From Naegleria gruberi (taxonomy: Eukaryota), in the NCBI GenBank assembly GCA_000004985.1, contig GG738856.1: 64,000 nucleotides of DNA; one strand, given 5' to 3'. The position numbers were made by a program, and so were the translations under genes. The notes under the pieces were generated by a model. It was not told the DNA's origin. It was given only the letters and a program-made list of their open reading frames with translations, and did not search any database. This document shows positions 24,245 through 63,089 of the stretch, piece by piece; positions within the stretch are counted from its first letter, which is position 1, and each line of letters begins with the position of its first letter.

Positions 24245-24290
24245 GCTACAACAAATTTTTAACTAAATCCTTGCATCAATTTAAAAAAAA

Positions 24291-38639: not shown

Positions 38640-40541
38640 TTAAAAGAAGTTTCTATTGTCCATGAAGATATTGTTTGGATCTAAAGTTCTCTTGGATGCA
38701 ACAAATTGATTATATGAACATTTTCCAAAGTACTTCTTCCAATCACTATTACCAAAATCTGGAATATAATTAGAGGCATAAAGGGTAGCACGTGGACGAT
38801 CGAATTGGAATACAGATCTAGTCATATCATCCCAAATCTTTCTATTGTCAAAAGCTTGATAATTCAATCCAGCATCAGTTCCAAATGCATCATCTCTACC
38901 GACAACCATCAAATAACTCCACTTTGAAGTGGTTGGAACTGAAAGGAATGGCAATGAGGCTGATGTAAAGAGAGGTGATGTTAAAATTGGATAAAGACCG
39001 ATGTGTCCAAAACCAGTTGATTTGAGTGGTGTGAATCTATCAATAAGTCTGTCAAAATCACTCTTTCCAGTTTCGTCTCTAACAAAAACATCACCTGCCA
39101 AATAAATATTAAGCCATGGATGACGTTGTGTCCAAGCACCAGTTTGAATTAAAGCTGGTAAACTGAAATAGTACAATCTTTCATCCCAAATATTGGTTGG
39201 CATATCATCAACAACAGCCAAATCAAATGTTTCATCACATAAGGCAGCAATTTGTTCAAGGCTTTCAGCAGTACTATCAAATCTCTTGGTCATTTCCAAT
39301 AAATAAATGTAAGTCAATCCTTGAGAAACCAAAGCATTAACTTGAGCTTCTTCTTCTGGTGAACGGTAAGTGGTACGTCCATTCAAAACCCAATTAATGA
39401 TAAAATCTAAAGTTCCTGGAACGATAAAGGTTTGGACAGTATTAACATGGACACTTCCTTGGTTGACTTGTTGAATCTTGTCAACAGCTCTCAACAATAC
39501 ATTAATATCAGTTGAGACATAGTGGTAAATACGAGTGAATGGATGATTAGGTTCCAAATTAATACGAACACGAGTCATGATACCAAATTGACCCATACCT
39601 CCCAAAACAGATTTGAACAAATTGGAGGTTGGAGTAACAGTAAGAACATCTCCATCACTATTAACAACTTCCAATTCAGCAACGTGGTGAGCACAGAGAC
39701 CTCTGAAAGCAGAGTCACCTCCAACACCTCCAATTGACAATGATCCACCCAATGTAATTCCAAAATAGTCAGGAGCAACATAAGGTCTCAATCCAAGAGT
39801 TGCAGCAGCACGAGTAAAAGCAAGCCAAGTGGCACCAGCTGAAGCCCACAATGACTTTTGACTTCCAACAGTAGTAGCTTGAGTAGCAACAGAGTTCAAT
39901 CTAGATCCCAAATCCAAGAGAATTTGCAATGGTGGAATAGTATTATCATCATCCAATTCTTGCTTGGAAATCAAAGTGGCAACATCAACAATTTGTGAAC
40001 CACCTTCAACATTACCTCCTGCACCTCTAATAACAATCTTGACAGGAGCAAATTGACTATTACAAGGTACAGACTTGACAGCCTTGACCAACTTGGCAAC
40101 TAATGCAGTTGTGCTTGGAACAACAACCACCATTGGAGTATTGTGAACTATGTGTCCATAATCTTCAGCATACTTTCTCAAAGTAGCTTCTTGACCATTT
40201 CCACCCAACAAGGACGAAATGATAAAATTGTCAGCCTTTTCAGAAGCACTGAATGATAACAAGACCTTTTGAAGAGAAATCTTGAAGGCATTCAAAACAC
40301 TAGTTGAAGGAACAGTACATCTAGTGGATGTAAAGTTGAAGGCATTATATTCGAAAGGATCAAAAGCAGCATATGGAGCAAAATTTGGATCAGAAACTCC
40401 AGACGAAGCAACCAGAGCAGATTGAGTCAGGGAAGTAGTGGTAAAAGTTGTGGCAGTATGGAAAGCAACTGGAGCATTAGCAGCCAAAGTACCTACACTG
40501 CAAATAGTTGCAATCAATACCAATCCAATGATCAATTTCAT
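38640..40541 (-). CDS. secreted FAD-linked oxidase, cytokinin-dehydrogenase (CKX)-like, PCMH-type FAD-binding domain
   Basis: Signal peptide MKLIIGLVLIATICSVGTLA. FAD-binding motifs IVIRGAGGNVEGGS and LGGSLSIGGVGG. GGMGQFGIMTRVRINLEPNHP matches the CKX-family GGLGQFGIITRARIxLEPAP. The C-terminus RTLDPNNIFMDNRNFF is CKX/BBE-like. Confidence 0.75.
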   Translation of the reverse strand: MKLIIGLVLIATICSVGTLAANAPVAFHTATTFTTTSLTQSALVASSGVSDPNFAPYAAFDPFEYNAFNFTSTRCTVPSTSVLNAFKISLQKVLLSFSASEKADNFIISSLLGGNGQEATLRKYAEDYGHIVHNTPMVVVVPSTTALVAKLVKAVKSVPCNSQFAPVKIVIRGAGGNVEGGSQIVDVATLISKQELDDDNTIPPLQILLDLGSRLNSVATQATTVGSQKSLWASAGATWLAFTRAAATLGLRPYVAPDYFGITLGGSLSIGGVGGDSAFRGLCAHHVAELEVVNSDGDVLTVTPTSNLFKSVLGGMGQFGIMTRVRINLEPNHPFTRIYHYVSTDINVLLRAVDKIQQVNQGSVHVNTVQTFIVPGTLDFIINWVLNGRTTYRSPEEEAQVNALVSQGLTYIYLLEMTKRFDSTAESLEQIAALCDETFDLAVVDDMPTNIWDERLYYFSLPALIQTGAWTQRHPWLNIYLAGDVFVRDETGKSDFDRLIDRFTPLKSTGFGHIGLYPILTSPLFTSASLPFLSVPTTSKWSYLMVVGRDDAFGTDAGLNYQAFDNRKIWDDMTRSVFQFDRPRATLYASNYIPDFGNSDWKKYFGKCSYNQFVASKRTLDPNNIFMDNRNFF

Positions 40542-42503
40542 TATCCTTGTGTGATCTGTGTTTCATCATCATCATCATCATCATTATATATAAAGTTTTA
40601 ATCCAAATAAGAATTATATCCCAAACATGAATATTGGATAAGTCCATGGTCATTATCAAATTAATAGTAAAGATGACATCCAGATCAGAAGCGCATTCCG
40701 TAGTTAGAAGAGAAATATGATCAACGCAGTAGTAGAAGAAAGCAGATCATCAAATTGATATTGTTGTGATGAAGAGGTTGAGGGTAAGAAAAGGCAGCTG
40801 TAATTATGTAACGTACCTAACTGAAAATTGGAGGCAAATAAATTAGAGGTTTTTTTTACTGTGATGATAATAATACCAAAAAATTGTCTTTCACTTCTCT
40901 CTCATCAAATATGAAGAGTTTTGGAATTATTTCATAGAAGAGGAAGGTAAATACCGAAAAATATTTTGTTTATCAGTGATGGAAGTGCATTATTGAATGA
41001 AAGTGATGGTGAATTTTGATAGAGGAAAAATTGAAGTGATTGTGTGGGTGCTTTCCGATGATGAGATTGTGTTCATGGTATTAATAATGATGACTACCAC
41101 CTAGTTATGCAAGTAATTTGAATTCGGCATCAACATTATTAAATTTATTTAGAAGGATATGAATTTCATGTGGCTTATCTTGTTAAACAATGTTTTGTTA
41201 CTGCAACAGAGCTTCTAATTAGAAGAGTATTATGTACTATTATTACGAAACAACAAGTATGCAGTCACGGTTGCACTACAGTTTTGATAGTATTGTAAAC
41301 CAGAATTTACTGTAATTCACTGTGATTTTTTGATTCTTTTTGGAATTATTAAGCTGTTACTTGACATTGGAACATTTTCTCTTTACAACACAGCACTAGA
41401 TCTGTAAAAAATCTAAATTGAACACCTCTATTATAATTTTGAAGAAATAATAATAAAAGAAATTCATCAAAACAATCAATTACTAATTTCTTTACAATGC
41501 ACAATCGTGTCATTTCCAGACTTCTTTTTCAAGCTAGTACAACTCCAGCTATTTGATATGAGCTGATGAAATACCTTCTATCTCAATTAATTTAACAGAT
41601 GTTGAATACAGAGAGAATATATCAGTGGAAAATATCTACTTCTAATGAATGTTTCTCATCCCTTATTCATTGAATATAATAGTATAGTATCACAAATATT
41701 AAAAGTAAAATATCCAATAATAGTGAAAATTACTGGAAAATATAATTATCTGGTAGAGAATGGATGAATGACATGCTGTTCGTGATGTTTCAGTGAGAAG
41801 ACAATATCCACATCATGAGAAAAACAATAAAAACATGAAAATATCAGATATCCATGATTTTCACAAATTATGCTACAAGACTCGAAATTATACATTTAAT
41901 AACATAATAAACATTATGAATTGTTTTATTATTATTGTTTGATTTGTAATTGGGCCATGAATCAACTCTGGCAGCATCAAATATCGGAACTTGGTAAATT
42001 GACAACATGATGAAAATCTGATAATAAATATGATGTTTATTATCTATTTAAATAGTAGTACTAAAAGACATGATTCAAGTTGGTGAAGTACATGTTGAGT
42101 TAATGGTGCATGTACTTTTTCAAAATCACAATGTACCTATCCCTATCATAACTTGACCAAAATTGATAAGAGAAAATTCTCCTACCTACTATTGACCATT
42201 CCGAACGATACTACATTCACAGTTTTCCAACTTGTCCAGTAGATCCAGCAGTGATGATGAATTTAGTGAAAATTTTGACATTTCTCCAAAATTACATTAC
42301 TAACAATTAATTTCCACAAATACTATTATTATATTGATGGAAAACAATAATGATGATGGTTGGTGAATGATCCGATGATGGAACACCAAATTGTGATTTT
42401 CCATCATGAAAAATAAATTCCAATTTCATGATGATAATCCACCAATAAAAATTACTATTATTACTACTATATAGATCATGTTGAGATGATGATGTGAAAG
42501 TTG

Positions 42504-43041: not shown

Positions 43042-44334
43042 ATGTCTTTGAATGAAGCAATCTATTATTCGTGCGAGAATGCAGAGAAGGAAACGTCATC
43101 ACAACCCACCAAGACAAAACAACAGGAAAGATTGCAAGATTTGAAGGCGTTCGATGCAGAATGTCATTATCGGAATAATAATTCATCTCATCATCATGAA
43201 GAGATTTCTAAAGGATTCATCACCCTAGATTCATCATTACTAATTAAATACAATAATAATAATAACAATAACAAATGTATAGTAGGAGAAATAATTAGTG
43301 AGGAAGAACAGGAGGGAGTGACCATCACTCTAATAGATTTTAGTAATAATATTGAAGTTGATGTTTTTGAAAAACTTGTTAGCAAGATGAGGACAAGAAA
43401 TGTTGGATTTTCCAATCAATTTATACATGTACATACCTTGATGGATTTGGGAGAAGTAGTCACAACAGGTCACGGGCCATATAATTGGCCTTATGGTGTT
43501 GCCATCTCACACAAGTGTAAATGTATTTTAATTAGTGACCAATACTCGAATAATATTAGTATCTTTGATCTGGAGAGTAAGAAACTAAAGACTAAACTAA
43601 CAACATTATTTGATCCTGGATGCTTGTGTATTGAGAGTGGAAAATCTGAACGTGATGACGATTCACTCATTGTCAGTTCCTGTAAGAATCGAGTGATATA
43701 TAAGTGGAATAATTTAGAGAGTGTGGTGATAAAAAGTATCAATAAGGAACGGATGCCACCGTTCGTTTGGAAACAAGGAGATTTCGGAACGCCTAGAGGA
43801 ATTACAATTCGCTATGAAAAGCAATCCAGTTTTAACACTATATTTGTTTGTGACAATACTAAACATAATGTAACATTACTAAACTCAGAGACTGGTCAAA
43901 TATTGAGGGCCATCAGCAAATTGGATGGTATTTACTTTGGAGAGCCATTCGGTATTGCTCTAAATAATTATGGTGACTTGATAGTAAGCGAGAAGTATTT
44001 CAATAGAGTACAAATTCTTTACCTCGATTCCAATAGTGGTGAATGGATTTCAAAAATCAAATTTGGAAGTAAGGAAGGTACACTAAAGTGTCCTAGTGGA
44101 TTACTTTTTGATAGAGTTAGAGAACAAATAATTGTTTGCGACCAAGAAAATCAGAGAATTTCAATTTACAAGGAAAATGGTGAATTGCTCACAACATTTG
44201 GTACTTTTGGTGTGTGTAAGAGCTCAAAGGATCCAAACTTACTGAATTACCCAACTACGGTTTGTCTTGATGAGAAGAGTGGAGAATTGTTTGTTGTGGA
44301 TTCGTGGAATATTCGTGTACTTGTATTCAAATAA
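43042..44334 (+). CDS. NHL-repeat (six-bladed beta-propeller) protein
   Basis: Six NHL-like blades (PYGVAISHKCKCILISDQYSNNISIFDLE; PRGITIRYEK...IFVCDNTKHNVTLLN; PFGIALNNYGDLIVSEKYFNRVQILY; PSGLLFDRVREQIIVCDQENQRISIY; PTTVCLDEKSGELFVVDSWNIRVLVF). No RING or B-box is present. Confidence 0.75.
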   Translation: MSLNEAIYYSCENAEKETSSQPTKTKQQERLQDLKAFDAECHYRNNNSSHHHEEISKGFITLDSSLLIKYNNNNNNNKCIVGEIISEEEQEGVTITLIDFSNNIEVDVFEKLVSKMRTRNVGFSNQFIHVHTLMDLGEVVTTGHGPYNWPYGVAISHKCKCILISDQYSNNISIFDLESKKLKTKLTTLFDPGCLCIESGKSERDDDSLIVSSCKNRVIYKWNNLESVVIKSINKERMPPFVWKQGDFGTPRGITIRYEKQSSFNTIFVCDNTKHNVTLLNSETGQILRAISKLDGIYFGEPFGIALNNYGDLIVSEKYFNRVQILYLDSNSGEWISKIKFGSKEGTLKCPSGLLFDRVREQIIVCDQENQRISIYKENGELLTTFGTFGVCKSSKDPNLLNYPTTVCLDEKSGELFVVDSWNIRVLVFK

Positions 44335-44444: not shown

Positions 44445-45641
44445 TTATTCAATTATTTCTGAAGATAATACCTTTTCTCTCTCATTCTCCACGCTCACAT
44501 TATTCAATGAAGTACTAAATTTGGATCTATAATGTTTGACAGACTCTGAAATATTCTCATTGCCATTAGAAATATTTAACATATTATCCAAAGAGTTGAC
44601 CAATCTACGAGCCACCTTATCATCAGGATTATTAGTTAAATATCCATTCAAAATATTTAAGGACTTGTTGACCTCATCCAAAGTCAAACTCTCTTGTCCG
44701 AAAATGGTGAATGCACTTTGGAAGTCTTTGAACCTTTGGTTTGCCTTGTGTTGCTCAACTTCATATAACCATTCATCACATTCAACAACATTTTCCTTGA
44801 TGATTTCATGAAGAGATGTCACTTGCTTGCCTTCCAATTCGAATCTATCAACAGGTCTTGTAACAAACAAGGAACTGGCATCTGTAATTGATTGGTCATC
44901 TGCCAATACTTTACAACCAGAATTTTTAGCAAAAAGTCCAATATTCTTTGCATTACAAGTGAGTGGACCTACAATGGAATAGCATCTCAATGAGTTATTA
45001 CCCAAATTTCCAATATTTGCGGCTCCACTAGAAATACCAATTGCATATGAAATGTTCTTTCCTGACTTGCCATGCAAATTATCCAAAACTTTGCAAATTT
45101 TGAGGGCAGATTCCATGGCTGCGATATTTGACTTTTTCTTATTGTCCACAAATGTTAATTGGAATTCTTCGACAGAAACAATTTGTAAATCTGTTACTTG
45201 CATGGTTTTAGCCAGAGTTGACAATCCAGAAGCAATCTTACCAAATAAGGAAGTTATTTCACTTGGGGAGTGAGTCTTACTGAAACCATAGAGTTTCAAA
45301 TTCAATACAGAAACTTCCTTATGCAGTGAAAGGCCCAACTTGAATAATCCTCCTGCATCCAATTTCATACTGTTCTTACTTTGTTTTGAGAAGTTAGAAT
45401 GCATTGAATTTTTGGAGTTTTGCTCTGATGAAGCCAGTGAACCACTTTCATCTCTTCTATCCACTGATGATCTTGCTTTCTTATCTTCCGTTGATGCTTC
45501 CTTATTTCCTCCTTCTTCATTCAATCCCATAGATCTTAATTGATTGAAAACGTTTTCTGGAATGAAAGATTTGAATTCATTGAGCCACTTTACCATTTCG
45601 TGTAGATCAGTATAGATGCTATCCACTTCTCTGAACTTGCT
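44445..45641 (-). CDS. partial CDS (3' part): class III adenylate/guanylate cyclase homology domain, probably catalytically degenerate; the N-terminus is lost in gap 45642..49534
   Basis: ISYAIGISSGAANIGNLGNNSLRCYSIVGPLTCNAKNIG aligns to the cyclase core RIGIHSGPVVAGVIGxxxPxYDIWGNTVNVASRMES. The canonical GDxY/metal Asp region is replaced (VEEFQL) and R is replaced by K in NAK. The ORF is uninterrupted for 1.2 kb with its stop at 44445. Confidence 0.6.
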   Translation of the reverse strand, partial: SKFREVDSIYTDLHEMVKWLNEFKSFIPENVFNQLRSMGLNEEGGNKEASTEDKKARSSVDRRDESGSLASSEQNSKNSMHSNFSKQSKNSMKLDAGGLFKLGLSLHKEVSVLNLKLYGFSKTHSPSEITSLFGKIASGLSTLAKTMQVTDLQIVSVEEFQLTFVDNKKKSNIAAMESALKICKVLDNLHGKSGKNISYAIGISSGAANIGNLGNNSLRCYSIVGPLTCNAKNIGLFAKNSGCKVLADDQSITDASSLFVTRPVDRFELEGKQVTSLHEIIKENVVECDEWLYEVEQHKANQRFKDFQSAFTIFGQESLTLDEVNKSLNILNGYLTNNPDDKVARRLVNSLDNMLNISNGNENISESVKHYRSKFSTSLNNVSVENEREKVLSSEIIE

Positions 45642-48600
45642 NNNNNNNNNNNNNNNNNNNNNNNNNNNNNNNNNNNNNNNNNNNNNNNNNNNNNNNNNNN
45701 NNNNNNNNNNNNNNNNNNNNNNNNNNNNNNNNNNNNNNNNNNNNNNNNNNNNNNNNNNNNNNNNNNNNNNNNNNNNNNNNNNNNNNNNNNNNNNNNNNNN
45801 NNNNNNNNNNNNNNNNNNNNNNNNNNNNNNNNNNNNNNNNNNNNNNNNNNNNNNNNNNNNNNNNNNNNNNNNNNNNNNNNNNNNNNNNNNNNNNNNNNNN
45901 NNNNNNNNNNNNNNNNNNNNNNNNNNNNNNNNNNNNNNNNNNNNNNNNNNNNNNNNNNNNNNNNNNNNNNNNNNNNNNNNNNNNNNNNNNNNNNNNNNNN
46001 NNNNNNNNNNNNNNNNNNNNNNNNNNNNNNNNNNNNNNNNNNNNNNNNNNNNNNNNNNNNNNNNNNNNNNNNNNNNNNNNNNNNNNNNNNNNNNNNNNNN
46101 NNNNNNNNNNNNNNNNNNNNNNNNNNNNNNNNNNNNNNNNNNNNNNNNNNNNNNNNNNNNNNNNNNNNNNNNNNNNNNNNNNNNNNNNNNNNNNNNNNNN
46201 NNNNNNNNNNNNNNNNNNNNNNNNNNNNNNNNNNNNNNNNNNNNNNNNNNNNNNNNNNNNNNNNNNNNNNNNNNNNNNNNNNNNNNNNNNNNNNNNNNNN
46301 NNNNNNNNNNNNNNNNNNNNNNNNNNNNNNNNNNNNNNNNNNNNNNNNNNNNNNNNNNNNNNNNNNNNNNNNNNNNNNNNNNNNNNNNNNNNNNNNNNNN
46401 NNNNNNNNNNNNNNNNNNNNNNNNNNNNNNNNNNNNNNNNNNNNNNNNNNNNNNNNNNNNNNNNNNNNNNNNNNNNNNNNNNNNNNNNNNNNNNNNNNNN
46501 NNNNNNNNNNNNNNNNNNNNNNNNNNNNNNNNNNNNNNNNNNNNNNNNNNNNNNNNNNNNNNNNNNNNNNNNNNNNNNNNNNNNNNNNNNNNNNNNNNNN
46601 NNNNNNNNNNNNNNNNNNNNNNNNNNNNNNNNNNNNNNNNNNNNNNNNNNNNNNNNNNNNNNNNNNNNNNNNNNNNNNNNNNNNNNNNNNNNNNNNNNNN
46701 NNNNNNNNNNNNNNNNNNNNNNNNNNNNNNNNNNNNNNNNNNNNNNNNNNNNNNNNNNNNNNNNNNNNNNNNNNNNNNNNNNNNNNNNNNNNNNNNNNNN
46801 NNNNNNNNNNNNNNNNNNNNNNNNNNNNNNNNNNNNNNNNNNNNNNNNNNNNNNNNNNNNNNNNNNNNNNNNNNNNNNNNNNNNNNNNNNNNNNNNNNNN
46901 NNNNNNNNNNNNNNNNNNNNNNNNNNNNNNNNNNNNNNNNNNNNNNNNNNNNNNNNNNNNNNNNNNNNNNNNNNNNNNNNNNNNNNNNNNNNNNNNNNNN
47001 NNNNNNNNNNNNNNNNNNNNNNNNNNNNNNNNNNNNNNNNNNNNNNNNNNNNNNNNNNNNNNNNNNNNNNNNNNNNNNNNNNNNNNNNNNNNNNNNNNNN
47101 NNNNNNNNNNNNNNNNNNNNNNNNNNNNNNNNNNNNNNNNNNNNNNNNNNNNNNNNNNNNNNNNNNNNNNNNNNNNNNNNNNNNNNNNNNNNNNNNNNNN
47201 NNNNNNNNNNNNNNNNNNNNNNNNNNNNNNNNNNNNNNNNNNNNNNNNNNNNNNNNNNNNNNNNNNNNNNNNNNNNNNNNNNNNNNNNNNNNNNNNNNNN
47301 NNNNNNNNNNNNNNNNNNNNNNNNNNNNNNNNNNNNNNNNNNNNNNNNNNNNNNNNNNNNNNNNNNNNNNNNNNNNNNNNNNNNNNNNNNNNNNNNNNNN
47401 NNNNNNNNNNNNNNNNNNNNNNNNNNNNNNNNNNNNNNNNNNNNNNNNNNNNNNNNNNNNNNNNNNNNNNNNNNNNNNNNNNNNNNNNNNNNNNNNNNNN
47501 NNNNNNNNNNNNNNNNNNNNNNNNNNNNNNNNNNNNNNNNNNNNNNNNNNNNNNNNNNNNNNNNNNNNNNNNNNNNNNNNNNNNNNNNNNNNNNNNNNNN
47601 NNNNNNNNNNNNNNNNNNNNNNNNNNNNNNNNNNNNNNNNNNNNNNNNNNNNNNNNNNNNNNNNNNNNNNNNNNNNNNNNNNNNNNNNNNNNNNNNNNNN
47701 NNNNNNNNNNNNNNNNNNNNNNNNNNNNNNNNNNNNNNNNNNNNNNNNNNNNNNNNNNNNNNNNNNNNNNNNNNNNNNNNNNNNNNNNNNNNNNNNNNNN
47801 NNNNNNNNNNNNNNNNNNNNNNNNNNNNNNNNNNNNNNNNNNNNNNNNNNNNNNNNNNNNNNNNNNNNNNNNNNNNNNNNNNNNNNNNNNNNNNNNNNNN
47901 NNNNNNNNNNNNNNNNNNNNNNNNNNNNNNNNNNNNNNNNNNNNNNNNNNNNNNNNNNNNNNNNNNNNNNNNNNNNNNNNNNNNNNNNNNNNNNNNNNNN
48001 NNNNNNNNNNNNNNNNNNNNNNNNNNNNNNNNNNNNNNNNNNNNNNNNNNNNNNNNNNNNNNNNNNNNNNNNNNNNNNNNNNNNNNNNNNNNNNNNNNNN
48101 NNNNNNNNNNNNNNNNNNNNNNNNNNNNNNNNNNNNNNNNNNNNNNNNNNNNNNNNNNNNNNNNNNNNNNNNNNNNNNNNNNNNNNNNNNNNNNNNNNNN
48201 NNNNNNNNNNNNNNNNNNNNNNNNNNNNNNNNNNNNNNNNNNNNNNNNNNNNNNNNNNNNNNNNNNNNNNNNNNNNNNNNNNNNNNNNNNNNNNNNNNNN
48301 NNNNNNNNNNNNNNNNNNNNNNNNNNNNNNNNNNNNNNNNNNNNNNNNNNNNNNNNNNNNNNNNNNNNNNNNNNNNNNNNNNNNNNNNNNNNNNNNNNNN
48401 NNNNNNNNNNNNNNNNNNNNNNNNNNNNNNNNNNNNNNNNNNNNNNNNNNNNNNNNNNNNNNNNNNNNNNNNNNNNNNNNNNNNNNNNNNNNNNNNNNNN
48501 NNNNNNNNNNNNNNNNNNNNNNNNNNNNNNNNNNNNNNNNNNNNNNNNNNNNNNNNNNNNNNNNNNNNNNNNNNNNNNNNNNNNNNNNNNNNNNNNNNNN

Positions 48601-49534
48601 NNNNNNNNNNNNNNNNNNNNNNNNNNNNNNNNNNNNNNNNNNNNNNNNNNNNNNNNNNNNNNNNNNNNNNNNNNNNNNNNNNNNNNNNNNNNNNNNNNNN
48701 NNNNNNNNNNNNNNNNNNNNNNNNNNNNNNNNNNNNNNNNNNNNNNNNNNNNNNNNNNNNNNNNNNNNNNNNNNNNNNNNNNNNNNNNNNNNNNNNNNNN
48801 NNNNNNNNNNNNNNNNNNNNNNNNNNNNNNNNNNNNNNNNNNNNNNNNNNNNNNNNNNNNNNNNNNNNNNNNNNNNNNNNNNNNNNNNNNNNNNNNNNNN
48901 NNNNNNNNNNNNNNNNNNNNNNNNNNNNNNNNNNNNNNNNNNNNNNNNNNNNNNNNNNNNNNNNNNNNNNNNNNNNNNNNNNNNNNNNNNNNNNNNNNNN
49001 NNNNNNNNNNNNNNNNNNNNNNNNNNNNNNNNNNNNNNNNNNNNNNNNNNNNNNNNNNNNNNNNNNNNNNNNNNNNNNNNNNNNNNNNNNNNNNNNNNNN
49101 NNNNNNNNNNNNNNNNNNNNNNNNNNNNNNNNNNNNNNNNNNNNNNNNNNNNNNNNNNNNNNNNNNNNNNNNNNNNNNNNNNNNNNNNNNNNNNNNNNNN
49201 NNNNNNNNNNNNNNNNNNNNNNNNNNNNNNNNNNNNNNNNNNNNNNNNNNNNNNNNNNNNNNNNNNNNNNNNNNNNNNNNNNNNNNNNNNNNNNNNNNNN
49301 NNNNNNNNNNNNNNNNNNNNNNNNNNNNNNNNNNNNNNNNNNNNNNNNNNNNNNNNNNNNNNNNNNNNNNNNNNNNNNNNNNNNNNNNNNNNNNNNNNNN
49401 NNNNNNNNNNNNNNNNNNNNNNNNNNNNNNNNNNNNNNNNNNNNNNNNNNNNNNNNNNNNNNNNNNNNNNNNNNNNNNNNNNNNNNNNNNNNNNNNNNNN
49501 NNNNNNNNNNNNNNNNNNNNNNNNNNNNNNNNNN
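45642..49534. other. assembly gap (N run, 3.9 kb)
   Basis: Contiguous N characters. Confidence 0.99.
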
Positions 49535-51436
49535 TGTTTTCCATCTGTGGAATAACTTTCACTTGCATCCAATAGAATATTTTCACAACTTGAATATGTT
49601 GTTTTTGAAGAAATTACAATTGTTGGGCGAATTGGATTTTCAGCATTTCCAATTTTGAATGATTGATAATCCTTTCCTAATTTGTTTCTATTAAACACAT
49701 TTCTATTCAACAAAATTTCTTGATCAACTTGAATAGAATGATCAGTTCCCAATTCAATAATAAAATCATTGGATGTCTTATTAGAATATCTACAAACTAC
49801 ATTAGAACCAAATGAGGAAATACTTGAAGAATCTAATAAATTGTTACAATCAACATTTAAGGATGTGAAATGATTTGGAGAGGTCATTTTGAAAAGTAAT
49901 CCATTTCCTTCATTATTGAAATGTACATTGGACATTTGAGTCATGCAATCTTCTCCATAAAATCCATCGTTGCAAGTATTACAATTAGTTCCATTCCAAT
50001 AACCGTTAGTTTCGTCTTGGAAACAAGTACAGAAACCATAGCCATCACATGTACCATGTGAATTGCATTTCAATGTAGCATTACATTTTTCAATAACTGT
50101 ACAATTAATTCCAGAGTATGGAATTTTACACTTGTCACATGTTTTTCCAACAAAGTGACCATCAATGTCATTATCAAAACATGAACAGTTATTTGGAGCA
50201 TTACATTTACCAACTCCATTGCAAACTTTCTTTGAATTCGATGAAATTCCATAGCAGATTGGATACTGACATATTGGCCCTTCGTAACCTTCCTCACAAA
50301 AACATCCAACAGTTGACATGTTGAATTTACATATACCATGTTGAGAACAAACTTTTGGATCTTTTTGTGGTAACCACATATCAACTCCTGCCTTACATAA
50401 AATCGTTTCACATTGTGGACCTATTGCTCTTCCACTTTCGGATTCCAAACAAGTGCATTGATTGGGACCTGTACATTTTCCTTGACCATTCGTGCAAACT
50501 CTAGAGTCATTATTGGATTTAAAACCAAAGCATGTATGAGAGGAACAAGTTTCTCCATCATATCCACCAAAACATTTGCATGTGTCCATGGTTGTGCATT
50601 GGCCATGGGAGGAACAAACTGATGAATTGAAAGATGGAATTCCAAAACAAGAATGGGAATCACATTTAGCCCCAAACCATTTAGGATTACACAAACAAAC
50701 ATCAGGGGAGAGGCATTTACCATGACCAGCACATACATTTGAATAGTTTGCTGGTAATCCAAAACACTTTGGAATTTCACAGAATTGTCCTGTCCAATGT
50801 GGATTGCATGAACACACATCTGTAGATACACAATCACCATTACCATTATTACAAACGTTTTGCACATCTTGTGAACTAGTTCCATTACACGAATGAACTG
50901 AACAATCAGCTCCAAACCAGCCCTTATTACAACGACAAGTGTCAGCATTAATACATTGACCATGACTTGAACAAACTGAAATATCACTGGAATTCACTGC
51001 AAAACATTTAGGAATTTCACACAATTGACCTGTCCATGTTTCATTACATAAACACAAATCTGTTCCAATGCACTGACCTCTTCCTCCATTACAAACATTT
51101 TGTAAATCTTGAGAGCTTGTTCCATTACATGAATGAATTGAACAATCAGCTCCAAACCATCCACTATTACAAGAGCATTTATCAGAGCTTATGCAATCTC
51201 CATGACCAGCACACACTTTTTTAGCAGTTGAAGCTAATCCGAAACATGTTGGAATTTCACAGAACTGGCCTGTCCAACCAGATTTACAATCACACTTATC
51301 CATTTGAATACATTCTCCATTACCCCCAGTGCACACGTGTTTTACATCTTGTGAGATTGTTCCATTACAGGAGTGAATATTACATAATGGACCAAACCAA
51401 CCTGTATTACATGGCAAGTATTAATATCAGTACAAT
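49535..51436 (-). CDS. partial CDS: tandem tenascin/laminin-type EGF-like Cys-rich repeats followed by a non-repeat segment; both ends run into gaps
   Basis: Ten or more units of CxxGWFGxxCxxHSCNGTSSQDxxNVCNGGxGxCxxxDxCxCNxxWTGQxCEIPKCFG. The repeats are also very similar at the DNA level (e.g. 50860..50940 vs 51100..51180). The C-terminal visible part (NVHFNNEGNG...SCENILLDASESYSTDGK) is non-repetitive. Confidence 0.75.
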
Positions 51437-54400
51437 ANNNNNNNNNNNNNNNNNNNNNNNNNNNNNNNNNNNNNNNNNNNNNNNNNNNNNNNNNNNNNNN
51501 NNNNNNNNNNNNNNNNNNNNNNNNNNNNNNNNNNNNNNNNNNNNNNNNNNNNNNNNNNNNNNNNNNNNNNNNNNNNNNNNNNNNNNNNNNNNNNNNNNNN
51601 NNNNNNNNNNNNNNNNNNNNNNNNNNNNNNNNNNNNNNNNNNNNNNNNNNNNNNNNNNNNNNNNNNNNNNNNNNNNNNNNNNNNNNNNNNNNNNNNNNNN
51701 NNNNNNNNNNNNNNNNNNNNNNNNNNNNNNNNNNNNNNNNNNNNNNNNNNNNNNNNNNNNNNNNNNNNNNNNNNNNNNNNNNNNNNNNNNNNNNNNNNNN
51801 NNNNNNNNNNNNNNNNNNNNNNNNNNNNNNNNNNNNNNNNNNNNNNNNNNNNNNNNNNNNNNNNNNNNNNNNNNNNNNNNNNNNNNNNNNNNNNNNNNNN
51901 NNNNNNNNNNNNNNNNNNNNNNNNNNNNNNNNNNNNNNNNNNNNNNNNNNNNNNNNNNNNNNNNNNNNNNNNNNNNNNNNNNNNNNNNNNNNNNNNNNNN
52001 NNNNNNNNNNNNNNNNNNNNNNNNNNNNNNNNNNNNNNNNNNNNNNNNNNNNNNNNNNNNNNNNNNNNNNNNNNNNNNNNNNNNNNNNNNNNNNNNNNNN
52101 NNNNNNNNNNNNNNNNNNNNNNNNNNNNNNNNNNNNNNNNNNNNNNNNNNNNNNNNNNNNNNNNNNNNNNNNNNNNNNNNNNNNNNNNNNNNNNNNNNNN
52201 NNNNNNNNNNNNNNNNNNNNNNNNNNNNNNNNNNNNNNNNNNNNNNNNNNNNNNNNNNNNNNNNNNNNNNNNNNNNNNNNNNNNNNNNNNNNNNNNNNNN
52301 NNNNNNNNNNNNNNNNNNNNNNNNNNNNNNNNNNNNNNNNNNNNNNNNNNNNNNNNNNNNNNNNNNNNNNNNNNNNNNNNNNNNNNNNNNNNNNNNNNNN
52401 NNNNNNNNNNNNNNNNNNNNNNNNNNNNNNNNNNNNNNNNNNNNNNNNNNNNNNNNNNNNNNNNNNNNNNNNNNNNNNNNNNNNNNNNNNNNNNNNNNNN
52501 NNNNNNNNNNNNNNNNNNNNNNNNNNNNNNNNNNNNNNNNNNNNNNNNNNNNNNNNNNNNNNNNNNNNNNNNNNNNNNNNNNNNNNNNNNNNNNNNNNNN
52601 NNNNNNNNNNNNNNNNNNNNNNNNNNNNNNNNNNNNNNNNNNNNNNNNNNNNNNNNNNNNNNNNNNNNNNNNNNNNNNNNNNNNNNNNNNNNNNNNNNNN
52701 NNNNNNNNNNNNNNNNNNNNNNNNNNNNNNNNNNNNNNNNNNNNNNNNNNNNNNNNNNNNNNNNNNNNNNNNNNNNNNNNNNNNNNNNNNNNNNNNNNNN
52801 NNNNNNNNNNNNNNNNNNNNNNNNNNNNNNNNNNNNNNNNNNNNNNNNNNNNNNNNNNNNNNNNNNNNNNNNNNNNNNNNNNNNNNNNNNNNNNNNNNNN
52901 NNNNNNNNNNNNNNNNNNNNNNNNNNNNNNNNNNNNNNNNNNNNNNNNNNNNNNNNNNNNNNNNNNNNNNNNNNNNNNNNNNNNNNNNNNNNNNNNNNNN
53001 NNNNNNNNNNNNNNNNNNNNNNNNNNNNNNNNNNNNNNNNNNNNNNNNNNNNNNNNNNNNNNNNNNNNNNNNNNNNNNNNNNNNNNNNNNNNNNNNNNNN
53101 NNNNNNNNNNNNNNNNNNNNNNNNNNNNNNNNNNNNNNNNNNNNNNNNNNNNNNNNNNNNNNNNNNNNNNNNNNNNNNNNNNNNNNNNNNNNNNNNNNNN
53201 NNNNNNNNNNNNNNNNNNNNNNNNNNNNNNNNNNNNNNNNNNNNNNNNNNNNNNNNNNNNNNNNNNNNNNNNNNNNNNNNNNNNNNNNNNNNNNNNNNNN
53301 NNNNNNNNNNNNNNNNNNNNNNNNNNNNNNNNNNNNNNNNNNNNNNNNNNNNNNNNNNNNNNNNNNNNNNNNNNNNNNNNNNNNNNNNNNNNNNNNNNNN
53401 NNNNNNNNNNNNNNNNNNNNNNNNNNNNNNNNNNNNNNNNNNNNNNNNNNNNNNNNNNNNNNNNNNNNNNNNNNNNNNNNNNNNNNNNNNNNNNNNNNNN
53501 NNNNNNNNNNNNNNNNNNNNNNNNNNNNNNNNNNNNNNNNNNNNNNNNNNNNNNNNNNNNNNNNNNNNNNNNNNNNNNNNNNNNNNNNNNNNNNNNNNNN
53601 NNNNNNNNNNNNNNNNNNNNNNNNNNNNNNNNNNNNNNNNNNNNNNNNNNNNNNNNNNNNNNNNNNNNNNNNNNNNNNNNNNNNNNNNNNNNNNNNNNNN
53701 NNNNNNNNNNNNNNNNNNNNNNNNNNNNNNNNNNNNNNNNNNNNNNNNNNNNNNNNNNNNNNNNNNNNNNNNNNNNNNNNNNNNNNNNNNNNNNNNNNNN
53801 NNNNNNNNNNNNNNNNNNNNNNNNNNNNNNNNNNNNNNNNNNNNNNNNNNNNNNNNNNNNNNNNNNNNNNNNNNNNNNNNNNNNNNNNNNNNNNNNNNNN
53901 NNNNNNNNNNNNNNNNNNNNNNNNNNNNNNNNNNNNNNNNNNNNNNNNNNNNNNNNNNNNNNNNNNNNNNNNNNNNNNNNNNNNNNNNNNNNNNNNNNNN
54001 NNNNNNNNNNNNNNNNNNNNNNNNNNNNNNNNNNNNNNNNNNNNNNNNNNNNNNNNNNNNNNNNNNNNNNNNNNNNNNNNNNNNNNNNNNNNNNNNNNNN
54101 NNNNNNNNNNNNNNNNNNNNNNNNNNNNNNNNNNNNNNNNNNNNNNNNNNNNNNNNNNNNNNNNNNNNNNNNNNNNNNNNNNNNNNNNNNNNNNNNNNNN
54201 NNNNNNNNNNNNNNNNNNNNNNNNNNNNNNNNNNNNNNNNNNNNNNNNNNNNNNNNNNNNNNNNNNNNNNNNNNNNNNNNNNNNNNNNNNNNNNNNNNNN
54301 NNNNNNNNNNNNNNNNNNNNNNNNNNNNNNNNNNNNNNNNNNNNNNNNNNNNNNNNNNNNNNNNNNNNNNNNNNNNNNNNNNNNNNNNNNNNNNNNNNNN

Positions 54401-57400
54401 NNNNNNNNNNNNNNNNNNNNNNNNNNNNNNNNNNNNNNNNNNNNNNNNNNNNNNNNNNNNNNNNNNNNNNNNNNNNNNNNNNNNNNNNNNNNNNNNNNNN
54501 NNNNNNNNNNNNNNNNNNNNNNNNNNNNNNNNNNNNNNNNNNNNNNNNNNNNNNNNNNNNNNNNNNNNNNNNNNNNNNNNNNNNNNNNNNNNNNNNNNNN
54601 NNNNNNNNNNNNNNNNNNNNNNNNNNNNNNNNNNNNNNNNNNNNNNNNNNNNNNNNNNNNNNNNNNNNNNNNNNNNNNNNNNNNNNNNNNNNNNNNNNNN
54701 NNNNNNNNNNNNNNNNNNNNNNNNNNNNNNNNNNNNNNNNNNNNNNNNNNNNNNNNNNNNNNNNNNNNNNNNNNNNNNNNNNNNNNNNNNNNNNNNNNNN
54801 NNNNNNNNNNNNNNNNNNNNNNNNNNNNNNNNNNNNNNNNNNNNNNNNNNNNNNNNNNNNNNNNNNNNNNNNNNNNNNNNNNNNNNNNNNNNNNNNNNNN
54901 NNNNNNNNNNNNNNNNNNNNNNNNNNNNNNNNNNNNNNNNNNNNNNNNNNNNNNNNNNNNNNNNNNNNNNNNNNNNNNNNNNNNNNNNNNNNNNNNNNNN
55001 NNNNNNNNNNNNNNNNNNNNNNNNNNNNNNNNNNNNNNNNNNNNNNNNNNNNNNNNNNNNNNNNNNNNNNNNNNNNNNNNNNNNNNNNNNNNNNNNNNNN
55101 NNNNNNNNNNNNNNNNNNNNNNNNNNNNNNNNNNNNNNNNNNNNNNNNNNNNNNNNNNNNNNNNNNNNNNNNNNNNNNNNNNNNNNNNNNNNNNNNNNNN
55201 NNNNNNNNNNNNNNNNNNNNNNNNNNNNNNNNNNNNNNNNNNNNNNNNNNNNNNNNNNNNNNNNNNNNNNNNNNNNNNNNNNNNNNNNNNNNNNNNNNNN
55301 NNNNNNNNNNNNNNNNNNNNNNNNNNNNNNNNNNNNNNNNNNNNNNNNNNNNNNNNNNNNNNNNNNNNNNNNNNNNNNNNNNNNNNNNNNNNNNNNNNNN
55401 NNNNNNNNNNNNNNNNNNNNNNNNNNNNNNNNNNNNNNNNNNNNNNNNNNNNNNNNNNNNNNNNNNNNNNNNNNNNNNNNNNNNNNNNNNNNNNNNNNNN
55501 NNNNNNNNNNNNNNNNNNNNNNNNNNNNNNNNNNNNNNNNNNNNNNNNNNNNNNNNNNNNNNNNNNNNNNNNNNNNNNNNNNNNNNNNNNNNNNNNNNNN
55601 NNNNNNNNNNNNNNNNNNNNNNNNNNNNNNNNNNNNNNNNNNNNNNNNNNNNNNNNNNNNNNNNNNNNNNNNNNNNNNNNNNNNNNNNNNNNNNNNNNNN
55701 NNNNNNNNNNNNNNNNNNNNNNNNNNNNNNNNNNNNNNNNNNNNNNNNNNNNNNNNNNNNNNNNNNNNNNNNNNNNNNNNNNNNNNNNNNNNNNNNNNNN
55801 NNNNNNNNNNNNNNNNNNNNNNNNNNNNNNNNNNNNNNNNNNNNNNNNNNNNNNNNNNNNNNNNNNNNNNNNNNNNNNNNNNNNNNNNNNNNNNNNNNNN
55901 NNNNNNNNNNNNNNNNNNNNNNNNNNNNNNNNNNNNNNNNNNNNNNNNNNNNNNNNNNNNNNNNNNNNNNNNNNNNNNNNNNNNNNNNNNNNNNNNNNNN
56001 NNNNNNNNNNNNNNNNNNNNNNNNNNNNNNNNNNNNNNNNNNNNNNNNNNNNNNNNNNNNNNNNNNNNNNNNNNNNNNNNNNNNNNNNNNNNNNNNNNNN
56101 NNNNNNNNNNNNNNNNNNNNNNNNNNNNNNNNNNNNNNNNNNNNNNNNNNNNNNNNNNNNNNNNNNNNNNNNNNNNNNNNNNNNNNNNNNNNNNNNNNNN
56201 NNNNNNNNNNNNNNNNNNNNNNNNNNNNNNNNNNNNNNNNNNNNNNNNNNNNNNNNNNNNNNNNNNNNNNNNNNNNNNNNNNNNNNNNNNNNNNNNNNNN
56301 NNNNNNNNNNNNNNNNNNNNNNNNNNNNNNNNNNNNNNNNNNNNNNNNNNNNNNNNNNNNNNNNNNNNNNNNNNNNNNNNNNNNNNNNNNNNNNNNNNNN
56401 NNNNNNNNNNNNNNNNNNNNNNNNNNNNNNNNNNNNNNNNNNNNNNNNNNNNNNNNNNNNNNNNNNNNNNNNNNNNNNNNNNNNNNNNNNNNNNNNNNNN
56501 NNNNNNNNNNNNNNNNNNNNNNNNNNNNNNNNNNNNNNNNNNNNNNNNNNNNNNNNNNNNNNNNNNNNNNNNNNNNNNNNNNNNNNNNNNNNNNNNNNNN
56601 NNNNNNNNNNNNNNNNNNNNNNNNNNNNNNNNNNNNNNNNNNNNNNNNNNNNNNNNNNNNNNNNNNNNNNNNNNNNNNNNNNNNNNNNNNNNNNNNNNNN
56701 NNNNNNNNNNNNNNNNNNNNNNNNNNNNNNNNNNNNNNNNNNNNNNNNNNNNNNNNNNNNNNNNNNNNNNNNNNNNNNNNNNNNNNNNNNNNNNNNNNNN
56801 NNNNNNNNNNNNNNNNNNNNNNNNNNNNNNNNNNNNNNNNNNNNNNNNNNNNNNNNNNNNNNNNNNNNNNNNNNNNNNNNNNNNNNNNNNNNNNNNNNNN
56901 NNNNNNNNNNNNNNNNNNNNNNNNNNNNNNNNNNNNNNNNNNNNNNNNNNNNNNNNNNNNNNNNNNNNNNNNNNNNNNNNNNNNNNNNNNNNNNNNNNNN
57001 NNNNNNNNNNNNNNNNNNNNNNNNNNNNNNNNNNNNNNNNNNNNNNNNNNNNNNNNNNNNNNNNNNNNNNNNNNNNNNNNNNNNNNNNNNNNNNNNNNNN
57101 NNNNNNNNNNNNNNNNNNNNNNNNNNNNNNNNNNNNNNNNNNNNNNNNNNNNNNNNNNNNNNNNNNNNNNNNNNNNNNNNNNNNNNNNNNNNNNNNNNNN
57201 NNNNNNNNNNNNNNNNNNNNNNNNNNNNNNNNNNNNNNNNNNNNNNNNNNNNNNNNNNNNNNNNNNNNNNNNNNNNNNNNNNNNNNNNNNNNNNNNNNNN
57301 NNNNNNNNNNNNNNNNNNNNNNNNNNNNNNNNNNNNNNNNNNNNNNNNNNNNNNNNNNNNNNNNNNNNNNNNNNNNNNNNNNNNNNNNNNNNNNNNNNNN

Positions 57401-60400: not shown

Positions 60401-63089
60401 NNNNNNNNNNNNNNNNNNNNNNNNNNNNNNNNNNNNNNNNNNNNNNNNNNNNNNNNNNNNNNNNNNNNNNNNNNNNNNNNNNNNNNNNNNNNNNNNNNNN
60501 NNNNNNNNNNNNNNNNNNNNNNNNNNNNNNNNNNNNNNNNNNNNNNNNNNNNNNNNNNNNNNNNNNNNNNNNNNNNNNNNNNNNNNNNNNNNNNNNNNNN
60601 NNNNNNNNNNNNNNNNNNNNNNNNNNNNNNNNNNNNNNNNNNNNNNNNNNNNNNNNNNNNNNNNNNNNNNNNNNNNNNNNNNNNNNNNNNNNNNNNNNNN
60701 NNNNNNNNNNNNNNNNNNNNNNNNNNNNNNNNNNNNNNNNNNNNNNNNNNNNNNNNNNNNNNNNNNNNNNNNNNNNNNNNNNNNNNNNNNNNNNNNNNNN
60801 NNNNNNNNNNNNNNNNNNNNNNNNNNNNNNNNNNNNNNNNNNNNNNNNNNNNNNNNNNNNNNNNNNNNNNNNNNNNNNNNNNNNNNNNNNNNNNNNNNNN
60901 NNNNNNNNNNNNNNNNNNNNNNNNNNNNNNNNNNNNNNNNNNNNNNNNNNNNNNNNNNNNNNNNNNNNNNNNNNNNNNNNNNNNNNNNNNNNNNNNNNNN
61001 NNNNNNNNNNNNNNNNNNNNNNNNNNNNNNNNNNNNNNNNNNNNNNNNNNNNNNNNNNNNNNNNNNNNNNNNNNNNNNNNNNNNNNNNNNNNNNNNNNNN
61101 NNNNNNNNNNNNNNNNNNNNNNNNNNNNNNNNNNNNNNNNNNNNNNNNNNNNNNNNNNNNNNNNNNNNNNNNNNNNNNNNNNNNNNNNNNNNNNNNNNNN
61201 NNNNNNNNNNNNNNNNNNNNNNNNNNNNNNNNNNNNNNNNNNNNNNNNNNNNNNNNNNNNNNNNNNNNNNNNNNNNNNNNNNNNNNNNNNNNNNNNNNNN
61301 NNNNNNNNNNNNNNNNNNNNNNNNNNNNNNNNNNNNNNNNNNNNNNNNNNNNNNNNNNNNNNNNNNNNNNNNNNNNNNNNNNNNNNNNNNNNNNNNNNNN
61401 NNNNNNNNNNNNNNNNNNNNNNNNNNNNNNNNNNNNNNNNNNNNNNNNNNNNNNNNNNNNNNNNNNNNNNNNNNNNNNNNNNNNNNNNNNNNNNNNNNNN
61501 NNNNNNNNNNNNNNNNNNNNNNNNNNNNNNNNNNNNNNNNNNNNNNNNNNNNNNNNNNNNNNNNNNNNNNNNNNNNNNNNNNNNNNNNNNNNNNNNNNNN
61601 NNNNNNNNNNNNNNNNNNNNNNNNNNNNNNNNNNNNNNNNNNNNNNNNNNNNNNNNNNNNNNNNNNNNNNNNNNNNNNNNNNNNNNNNNNNNNNNNNNNN
61701 NNNNNNNNNNNNNNNNNNNNNNNNNNNNNNNNNNNNNNNNNNNNNNNNNNNNNNNNNNNNNNNNNNNNNNNNNNNNNNNNNNNNNNNNNNNNNNNNNNNN
61801 NNNNNNNNNNNNNNNNNNNNNNNNNNNNNNNNNNNNNNNNNNNNNNNNNNNNNNNNNNNNNNNNNNNNNNNNNNNNNNNNNNNNNNNNNNNNNNNNNNNN
61901 NNNNNNNNNNNNNNNNNNNNNNNNNNNNNNNNNNNNNNNNNNNNNNNNNNNNNNNNNNNNNNNNNNNNNNNNNNNNNNNNNNNNNNNNNNNNNNNNNNNN
62001 NNNNNNNNNNNNNNNNNNNNNNNNNNNNNNNNNNNNNNNNNNNNNNNNNNNNNNNNNNNNNNNNNNNNNNNNNNNNNNNNNNNNNNNNNNNNNNNNNNNN
62101 NNNNNNNNNNNNNNNNNNNNNNNNNNNNNNNNNNNNNNNNNNNNNNNNNNNNNNNNNNNNNNNNNNNNNNNNNNNNNNNNNNNNNNNNNNNNNNNNNNNN
62201 NNNNNNNNNNNNNNNNNNNNNNNNNNNNNNNNNNNNNNNNNNNNNNNNNNNNNNNNNNNNNNNNNNNNNNNNNNNNNNNNNNNNNNNNNNNNNNNNNNNN
62301 NNNNNNNNNNNNNNNNNNNNNNNNNNNNNNNNNNNNNNNNNNNNNNNNNNNNNNNNNNNNNNNNNNNNNNNNNNNNNNNNNNNNNNNNNNNNNNNNNNNN
62401 NNNNNNNNNNNNNNNNNNNNNNNNNNNNNNNNNNNNNNNNNNNNNNNNNNNNNNNNNNNNNNNNNNNNNNNNNNNNNNNNNNNNNNNNNNNNNNNNNNNN
62501 NNNNNNNNNNNNNNNNNNNNNNNNNNNNNNNNNNNNNNNNNNNNNNNNNNNNNNNNNNNNNNNNNNNNNNNNNNNNNNNNNNNNNNNNNNNNNNNNNNNN
62601 NNNNNNNNNNNNNNNNNNNNNNNNNNNNNNNNNNNNNNNNNNNNNNNNNNNNNNNNNNNNNNNNNNNNNNNNNNNNNNNNNNNNNNNNNNNNNNNNNNNN
62701 NNNNNNNNNNNNNNNNNNNNNNNNNNNNNNNNNNNNNNNNNNNNNNNNNNNNNNNNNNNNNNNNNNNNNNNNNNNNNNNNNNNNNNNNNNNNNNNNNNNN
62801 NNNNNNNNNNNNNNNNNNNNNNNNNNNNNNNNNNNNNNNNNNNNNNNNNNNNNNNNNNNNNNNNNNNNNNNNNNNNNNNNNNNNNNNNNNNNNNNNNNNN
62901 NNNNNNNNNNNNNNNNNNNNNNNNNNNNNNNNNNNNNNNNNNNNNNNNNNNNNNNNNNNNNNNNNNNNNNNNNNNNNNNNNNNNNNNNNNNNNNNNNNNN
63001 NNNNNNNNNNNNNNNNNNNNNNNNNNNNNNNNNNNNNNNNNNNNNNNNNNNNNNNNNNNNNNNNNNNNNNNNNNNNNNNNNNNNNNNNN
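51437..63089. other. assembly gap (N run, 11.65 kb)
   Basis: Contiguous N characters. Confidence 0.99.

Follow-up and report, generated by a model that had tools for sequence, protein, structure and literature searches.

The minus strand of a 64,000-nucleotide stretch of Naegleria gruberi DNA (contig GG738856.1, assembly GCA_000004985.1; hereafter the window) carries two protein-coding pieces that are separated by an assembly gap. The first piece, in the direction of transcription, encodes an array of EGF repeats and makes up most of a 1.9-kb contig (49535-51437), and the second is an open reading frame (ORF) of 398 codons (44448-45641, stop codon TAA at 44445-44447), which encodes a protein related to class III nucleotidyl cyclases. 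The EGF contig is bordered by a run of N on either side: 3,893 N (45642-49534) lie between the two pieces, and 11,652 N (51438-63089) are located on its 5' side. Placement and orientation of the island depend on scaffolding alone. A first-pass annotation of the window, which was made from the sequence without database searches, suggested that both pieces could belong to one very large receptor with an EGF-repeat ectodomain and a catalytically degenerate cyclase domain. The comparisons described here point to a different arrangement, in which the locus probably consists of two neighbouring genes in head-to-tail orientation, which are broken by the gap and were merged by a public gene model.

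The EGF-containing ORF (49537-51417, minus strand) encodes 627 amino acids, the first 491 of which (49945-51417) form approximately 12 six-cysteine units of the teneurin/tenascin type, as seen in Pfam searches and by parsing of the individual units. The ORF is matched by the Pfam families EGF_Teneurin (E 4.5e-40), EGF_2 (1.2e-39) and EGF_TEN (1.2e-25), and the matches consist of eight to nine separately scored stretches with E values around 1e-40. The units are about 40 amino acids long, and the array, which begins mid-unit at its 5' edge, contains 72 cysteines in 491 amino acids as well as 13 N-glycosylation sequons. At the DNA level, a 240-bp tandem repeat is found at 50755-51276 (2.2 copies, 73% identical), whose period corresponds to two EGF units. 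The repeat points to an internal duplication that took place fairly recently, and it is a likely reason for the poor assembly of the EGF region. The array is followed by a tail of 136 amino acids without EGF units (MTQMSNVHF...ASESYSTDGK; 49537-49944), which contains three cysteines and whose frame remains open to the border of the 3.9-kb gap. The tail has no Pfam match at E<0.05 and no homologue in an index of 5.8 billion proteins, in metagenome contigs or among the fetched proteins. Its end (PTIVISS...C..ILLDASESYSTDG) may bear some resemblance to PKD/REJ-type repeats. The tail is probably still extracellular and part of an orphan domain that is cut off by the gap.

At its other end, the EGF contig does not simply continue the reading frame. 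The contig edge (51418-51437, minus strand; translation LY-stop-Y-stop-YLPCNTGW) contains an in-frame TGA and an in-frame TAA (51418-51435), which precede the first EGF half-unit by 18 nt; thus, the EGF ORF is not simply open into the 11.6-kb gap. The edge sequence harbors a branch-point-like tactgat and an acag/G acceptor, and it is likely that the 3' end of an intron is located here, with the intron straddling the border of the 11.6-kb gap. The earlier description of 1.9 kb of intron-free tenascin- and laminin-type EGF repeats has to be adjusted accordingly: the EGF array is real, but it covers only around 1.47 kb, as the last 136 amino acids are not EGF; none of the laminin-EGF models matched the segment; and the absence of introns holds within each of the two pieces, but the stops at 51418-51435 suggest an intron edge upstream of the EGF repeats.

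The EGF gene encodes a type of EGF-array surface protein which is abundant in Heterolobosea, and its relatives are 32-38% identical over most of the EGF part. In a hydropathy scan, a C-terminal transmembrane (TM) helix was predicted for four of the five relatives that were checked; the fifth, P0008, has no predicted TM helix. The helix is found at residues 870-888 of 913 in P0004, 925-943 of 984 in P0005 and 1057-1075 of 1091 in P0023, and is followed by a short tail in these three proteins. In the N. gruberi protein P0003, the TM helix (residues 644-662) is followed by a kinase domain, resulting in an EGF-TM-kinase architecture.

The product of the cyclase-like ORF begins with two juxtamembrane helices (amino acids 1-43, SKFREVDSIYTDLHEMVKWLNEFKSFIPENVFNQL; 45513-45641, minus strand as for all parts of this ORF), which span residues 2-24 and 29-43 in the structural model. 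They contain the family-invariant residues E5 and P28 and are, in an alignment with P0001, P0032 and P0033, colinear with the segment that follows the second TM helix of the paralogues. The helices are HAMP-like by position and two-helix layout only, and a HAMP domain (PF00672) was undetected in the linkers of four paralogues at Pfam E values of up to 10. The helices are connected to the next domain by a serine-, lysine- and glutamate-rich linker (approximately amino acids 44-100; 45342-45512), which is predicted to be disordered, with a predicted local distance difference test score (pLDDT) of below 50 at residues 45-100; a similar disordered linker is present at residues 422-474 of the P0032 model. 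The linker is followed by a degenerate class III cyclase homology domain (approximately amino acids 101-285; 44787-45341), which was delimited by Pfam PF00211, a family profile and Foldseek. The C-terminal part (amino acids 286-398; 44445-44786) was defined by the model and by conservation and forms a helical tail, which begins with the motif DEWxYE containing the invariant W291. Its helices (residues 291-315, 321-337 and 342-357) were modelled by AlphaFold at a pLDDT of around 90-98. A similarity of this tail to 14-3-3 proteins (E 0.06) was weak and was taken as a generic likeness between helical proteins.

The single sequence matches the Pfam family Guanylate_cyc over profile positions 7-177 of 183 with a score of 20.7 bits (E 3.3e-4), which lies slightly below the gathering cut-off of 21.9, and the best PDB sequence matches of the fragment alone are the domains of rhodopsin-guanylyl cyclases (E 0.005). 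A profile built from 42 family sequences matches the Pseudomonas aeruginosa adenylyl cyclase CyaB (3r5g, 1.3e-14), soluble adenylyl cyclase (7.6e-14) and numerous further domains of class III in the PDB. The AlphaFold model of the fragment, which was built on the 42-sequence family alignment, has a mean pLDDT of 83, with values above 90 throughout residues 104-283. In a Foldseek comparison of this model with the PDB, all of the top 50 matches are class III cyclase domains, including 3r5g (1e-11) and 5oyh with a target TM-score of 0.82, the best value being 0.83. Since the single-sequence score is sub-threshold, the assignment of the 44445-45641 product to this fold, a beta-alpha-beta-beta-alpha-beta core with a dimerisation arm, follows from the family profile and the predicted structure. 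Both bear out the class III cyclase homology noticed in the first pass, and the outcome that had been named there as refuting it, a failure to place the product in the class III cyclase family, did not occur.

An exhaustive phmmer search revealed 298 relatives of the cyclase piece. The closest full-length relatives have a length of 779-866 amino acids and are encoded by N. gruberi (P0032, P0185), N. lovaniensis (P0033, P0040), N. fowleri (P0181, P0189) and Willaertia magna (P0034, P0038); the family includes the loci NAEGRDRAFT_64921, NAEGRDRAFT_66497, C9374_013852, FDP41_009360 and ABK040_016284. These paralogues share 35-46% identity with the fragment over approximately 370 columns and are colinear with it from the juxtamembrane helix to the C-terminus. 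In the closest relatives, the similarity sets in at residue 384-461, which corresponds precisely to the gap edge. The N-terminal module of the relatives, which precedes this point, consists of a first TM helix (TM1) at around residue 40-90, a region of approximately 310 amino acids and a second TM helix (TM2). Exactly two TM helices were predicted, by a simple hydropathy scan, for 53 of the 79 relatives with a length of at least 700 amino acids, and the helices are around 320 amino acids apart where inspected. All full-length paralogues have a TM helix whose end lies approximately 30-40 residues upstream of the position at which the fragment starts. The region between the TM helices has a weak Pfam match to dCache_1; the family profile matches the ligand-binding domains of chemoreceptors (6mni, 3.2e-10), and the AlphaFold model of P0032 (pLDDT 82.6) matches McpB/McpC, with McpB aligned over 421 columns, and the ligand-binding domain of CtaA. 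In a neighbour-joining tree, a rough distance tree, the window copy is nested with the N. gruberi proteins P0032 and P0185, which both have the standard architecture of the 779-839-amino-acid paralogues. The gene encoding P0033 in N. lovaniensis stands alone without an EGF neighbour, and its locus shares only the cyclase-like gene with the window.

A few N. gruberi gene models of this family, which were generated by the Joint Genome Institute (JGI), namely P0001 (491 amino acids), P0037 (265 amino acids), P0061 (890 amino acids) and P0187 (2154 amino acids), look truncated or chimeric. Two of them were considered as candidates for a domain swap and rejected. P0061 combines RCC1 repeats with the cyclase-like part and retains half of the dCache module, giving it the look of a merged or truncated model. 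P0187, which has a seven-transmembrane-RGS part in addition to the cyclase-like part, retains a complete TM1-ectodomain-TM2-cyclase unit and looks like a merged model; however, it could be a real fusion.

The idea of a single gene at the locus is already present in GenBank. The protein XP_002679910.1 (P0002, NAEGRDRAFT_65131, UniProt D2V8E7), which is annotated as 'predicted protein' and encoded on a 602,266-bp scaffold, has a length of 942 amino acids, and its 90% cluster has one member. Residues 1-562 are identical to the EGF segment and residues 563-942 to the translation of 44448-45587. Its junction (NPIRPTI/WLNEFK) uses a GT at ACAATT/GTAATT and an AG at GGTAAAG/TGGCTC and skips around 4 kb, including the N's. 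The model starts at an internal methionine, leaves out the 54 codons at the end of the EGF contig and lacks whatever is hidden in the gaps, and the splice removes the first 17 residues of the cyclase fragment, which are conserved in the family and include the invariant E5. The junction is a gene-prediction artefact and not evidence of a fusion. XP_002679910.1 is probably a chimera made by the gap, and citing it as an EGF-receptor cyclase should be avoided. The locus as such is thus already in GenBank, and its 'giant receptor' aspect is most likely an artefact of assembly and annotation.

The presence of two genes is favoured because the nearest paralogues of the cyclase-like fragment carry their own TM1-dCache-TM2 module and most of the EGF-array relatives that were checked carry their own TM anchor. 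The proposed role of the EGF array as the ectodomain of the same protein finds no counterpart among the cyclase relatives: none of approximately 160 of them is similar to the EGF segment in BLASTP, and cysteine makes up 0.2-3.2% of their N-terminal halves. As the fragment matches its relatives from residue 384-461 onwards, approximately 1.2-1.4 kb of the cyclase-like gene should be located in the gap. Judged from the paralogues, the 3.9-kb gap would then contain the end of the EGF gene with its TM anchor, a spacer, and TM1, the dCache-like ectodomain, TM2 and the first juxtamembrane helix of the cyclase-like protein. Taking the N run as an estimate of the real gap size, the gap can accommodate the 1.2-1.4-kb 5' region of the cyclase-like gene, a spacer and up to around 700 codons of the EGF gene. 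No relatives were recovered when metagenomes were scanned with either the EGF tail or the cyclase fragment, exact-protein look-ups for the neighbouring NHL ORF, P0001 and P0032 returned nothing on record, and no gap-spanning sequence was found by either approach.

Several points weigh against two genes. The boundary is drawn by comparison with relatives, and, as the sequence between the two pieces consists of N's, neither a stop nor a start codon nor TM1 has been seen there. The TM helices of the relatives were predicted by a simple hydropathy scan, the tree is a rough one based on distances, and the N-run lengths are estimates. Furthermore, both pieces have the same orientation, the EGF ORF is open where it enters the gap, and Naegleria does join EGF arrays to cytoplasmic signalling domains, as in the EGF-TM-kinase P0003, so that a domain shuffle uniting EGF repeats and a cyclase domain is conceivable. 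Some of these points argue for one giant gene, in which the EGF repeats and the non-EGF domain form the ectodomain of a single-pass or odd-pass receptor and are followed, after around 1,300 residues hidden in the gap, by a TM helix, the juxtamembrane helices and the degenerate cyclase domain. The two pieces are adjacent on the same strand, with the EGF ORF open into and the cyclase-like ORF open out of the gap, and they are joined by XP_002679910.1. The topology would also be workable, as the paralogues have a TM helix just before the position of the fragment start. A lack of a TM segment between the EGF repeats and the cyclase domain, which the first-pass annotation had named as an argument against a single gene, would not apply here, judged from this helix of the paralogues; in the window itself, no such TM segment is visible. 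Nevertheless, a single gene is unlikely. In addition to the lack of EGF similarity among the approximately 160 cyclase relatives, PF00211 is absent from all of the 30 best EGF relatives, and a TM1-dCache-TM2 module behind extracellular EGF repeats would bring the dCache domain to the wrong membrane side if no additional TM helices are present. Moreover, the splice used by the public model was invented across N's; it covers around 4 kb and deletes conserved residues, and other JGI models of the cyclase-like family (P0001, P0037, P0061 and P0187) are visibly truncated or chimeric. If a fusion existed, it would represent a dCache-type pseudo-cyclase paralogue that acquired an EGF ectodomain, that is, an adhesion-type receptor of more than 2,000 amino acids built on a dead cyclase, and this architecture would be without precedent among the approximately 160 relatives.

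It is also possible, although highly unlikely, that the EGF island was misplaced or inverted during scaffolding and that the adjacency of the two pieces is meaningless, which would be a special case of two genes. The EGF contig is flanked by 3,893 and 11,652 N's, is internally repetitive due to the 240-bp repeat, belongs to a large family of EGF paralogues and is located in a subtelomeric region that is hard to assemble. However, the window shows no direct sign of a misassembly, and paired-end scaffolding is mostly right with respect to order and orientation.

Class III cyclases use an established two-metal mechanism. The catalytic hexad of CyaB (metal-binding Asp, Lys, metal-binding Asp, Thr, Asn and Arg; D-K-D-T-N-R) was mapped through the family profile and corresponds to K-I-E-S-C-N in the window copy. 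The first metal-binding Asp (CyaB FSD) is replaced by Lys and the second one (CyaB VGD) by Glu, and the Gly of the GD motif is replaced by Val. The Lys that contacts adenine is replaced by Ile and Ser is found at the Thr position; hence, the substrate-specifying pair is not canonical. The transition-state residues Asn and Arg are replaced by Cys and Asn, respectively (GPLTCNAKNI aligned to GREVNLASRL). The alignment is anchored by the ungapped pairs LKLYGFS/SDIRGFT, VSVEEFQL/FVGDCVMV and IVGPLTCNAKNI/IIGREVNLASRL. As both the metal half and the substrate and transition-state half are gone, the domain would be unable to build a canonical active site, neither as a homodimer nor together with a partner in a heterodimer. 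Judged from this alignment, five of the six catalytic residues are lost in the window domain, while the predicted fold is kept, and the missing residues suggest that the protein is a pseudo-enzyme with a non-catalytic role. The first-pass annotation had described the core as degenerate, with a replaced GDxY and a Lys in place of the Arg. The details of the residues differ from this: the Arg position is occupied by Asn, and the Lys sits one position earlier; a replacement of Arg by Lys is the commonest state at this position across the family. The label 'pseudo-cyclase' is fair, as the loss of catalytic residues is heavier than had been claimed.

A degeneracy of a similar kind is found in almost all eukaryotic relatives among the 150 listed. 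In the family, the first metal position is occupied by K, R, N or T, the Lys position by I, V or S and the Asn position by E or S, and only the carboxylate at the second metal position is retained in many cases (D in 72, E in 17 of approximately 160 relatives). Among the 150 listed relatives, just three have the canonical hexad DKDTNR, namely P0161 from a Methylococcaceae bacterium, P0169 from a Logan assembly contig and P0177. Eukaryotes that lack the hexad include Naegleria, Willaertia, Entosiphon, Lacrimia and Apiculatamorpha, and G211, G214, W291 and the motif DEWxYE are kept in these organisms. Across the 42 family sequences, including the window copy, the residues E5, P28, G211, G214 and W291 are invariant. 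Relocated catalytic residues or an unusual chemistry could in principle sustain activity, which would speak against a pseudo-enzyme. That the domain is a true receptor cyclase, which remains active via such non-canonical or relocated residues, is most improbable. In its favour, the fold is complete in a high-confidence model, a Glu carboxylate is present at the second metal position and a Ser at the Thr/Asp specificity position, the family is kept across Naegleria and Willaertia and hence under selection, and relatives are annotated in databases as guanylate or adenylate cyclases ('guanylate cyclase domain-containing' for the UniProt entries of N. lovaniensis and N. fowleri; 'adenylate cyclase 1-like'), but the catalytic positions vary freely in the relatives (K/R/N/T; I/V/S; E/S/N/K), unlike a relocated active site, and the conserved residues are either structural (G211, G214) or located off the catalytic pocket (E5, P28, W291, DEWxYE).

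With two genes and a dead cyclase domain, the following picture can be proposed. The EGF gene (49537-51417 and beyond) would encode a secreted or type I membrane protein with at least 12 EGF units followed by a non-EGF domain without a match to a known family; the 11.6-kb gap would hide its N-terminus, and the 3.9-kb gap would hide its C-terminus, which probably has a single TM anchor. The cyclase-like gene (44445-45641 and the part in the gap) would encode a paralogue in a family that is expanded in Heterolobosea and whose members have a length of approximately 780-870 amino acids. The protein would start with a short cytoplasmic N-terminus, followed by TM1, a dCache domain of around 310 amino acids, TM2, two juxtamembrane helices, the disordered serine-rich linker of approximately 55 residues, the cyclase homology domain and the three-helix DEWxYE tail. 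The dCache sensor, which is seen in the paralogues, would be extracellular also in the window copy. The protein would most likely act as a ligand-sensing two-pass receptor, whose dimeric pseudo-cyclase and helical tail provide an output or binding module without catalysis. As output, binding or scaffolding is presumed and not the synthesis of cyclic nucleotides.

The locus lies close to a chromosome end. At 63552-63999, TTTGGG is repeated in tandem 74.7 times, and the G-rich strand points 5' to 3' toward the window end. TTTGGG has been published as candidate telomere repeat of N. gruberi (PMC3622300), and the EGF/cyclase locus is therefore subtelomeric; the window end is the chromosome end, and the locus belongs to the last genes of the arm. 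The remainder of the window consists of ordinary, densely packed genes. A gene on the plus strand (43042-44334) encoding an NHL-repeat protein of 430 amino acids with an Asn run (PF01436, 1.7e-13) is convergent with the cyclase-like ORF, and the two stop codons are 110 bp apart. NHL and teneurin-type EGF domains occur together in several Naegleria proteins (P0008, P0015 and P0023). A FAD-binding oxidase resembling cytokinin dehydrogenases, which has a hydrophobic N-terminus, is encoded at 38643-40562 on the minus strand (FAD_binding_4, 2.4e-11; Cytokin-bind, 7.4e-09). Further genes encode the alpha subunit of a heterotrimeric G-protein (24285-25406, plus strand; PF00503, 1.9e-50), a CoA-transferase of family III (25556-27169, minus strand) and a protein of the AtuA family (acyclic terpene utilisation; 27626-29452, plus strand; 2.6e-157). 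The latter two are neighbours with a bacterial look and may be candidates for lateral transfer.

Naegleria has been credited with approximately 80 or more adenylyl and guanylyl cyclases (PMC9283941, PMC9928731). Putative receptor pseudo-enzymes such as the one described here are probably counted among them, and a part of the 'cyclase' repertoire of N. gruberi, N. lovaniensis and N. fowleri, and also of Willaertia, may consist of receptor pseudo-enzymes. Under either gene model of the locus, it is far more probable than a fusion that the full-length heterolobosean members carry a dead cyclase domain behind a bacterial-type dCache domain and ahead of the DEWxYE tail. A description of the degeneracy or of the dCache sensor of this family was not found in the searchable literature, and the receptor pseudo-cyclase with a bacterial-type dCache domain is, at the level of the family, a modest lead.

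Among known systems, the EGF gene is most similar to the EGF-array proteins of Naegleria and other Heterolobosea, such as the EGF-TM-kinase P0003, the EGF-NHL proteins P0008 and P0015 and the Acrasis 'tenascin' P0011, with which it shares the six-cysteine EGF_2/EGF_Teneurin units; however, none of them has a match to the 136-amino-acid domain located downstream of the array in the window. Trypanosomatid receptor adenylyl cyclases and Dictyostelium ACG are active enzymes with other ectodomains. They belong to the receptor-type cyclases of protists (PMC9928731). Their plan for sensing the environment, a large ectodomain, a TM helix and a class III domain, would be shared by the locus, and an EGF-ectodomain cyclase was not found among the relatives examined. 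The heterolobosean dCache pseudo-cyclase paralogues have the same invariant residues and the same type of degeneracy as the window copy; in these proteins, the TM1-dCache-TM2 module is visible, whereas that of the window copy would be located in the gap. The family also bears on the distribution of dCache domains. All eukaryotic dCache_1 proteins were said to carry a VWA insertion (PMC8915833), a statement with which the family is at odds, since its ectodomain is a dCache domain of around 300 amino acids between the two TM helices and has no room for such an insertion. Bacterial membrane sensor cyclases with a dCache_1 domain include a guanylate/adenylate cyclase of Legionella (PMC8915833). 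The closest parallel is provided by the bacterial class IIIb sensor cyclases, such as P. aeruginosa CyaB (3r5g), which is the best sequence-profile and structure match of the cyclase-like family, and P0161, which is annotated as 'adenylate/guanylate cyclase with integral membrane sensor'. They have a similar layout with two TM helices, an extracytoplasmic sensor, juxtamembrane helices and the class III fold. In contrast to the window copy with its K-I-E-S-C-N, however, the bacterial enzymes keep D-K-D-T-N-R, and the heterolobosean proteins have a disordered linker of approximately 55 residues instead of a rigid helical coupling and an additional three-helix DEWxYE tail.

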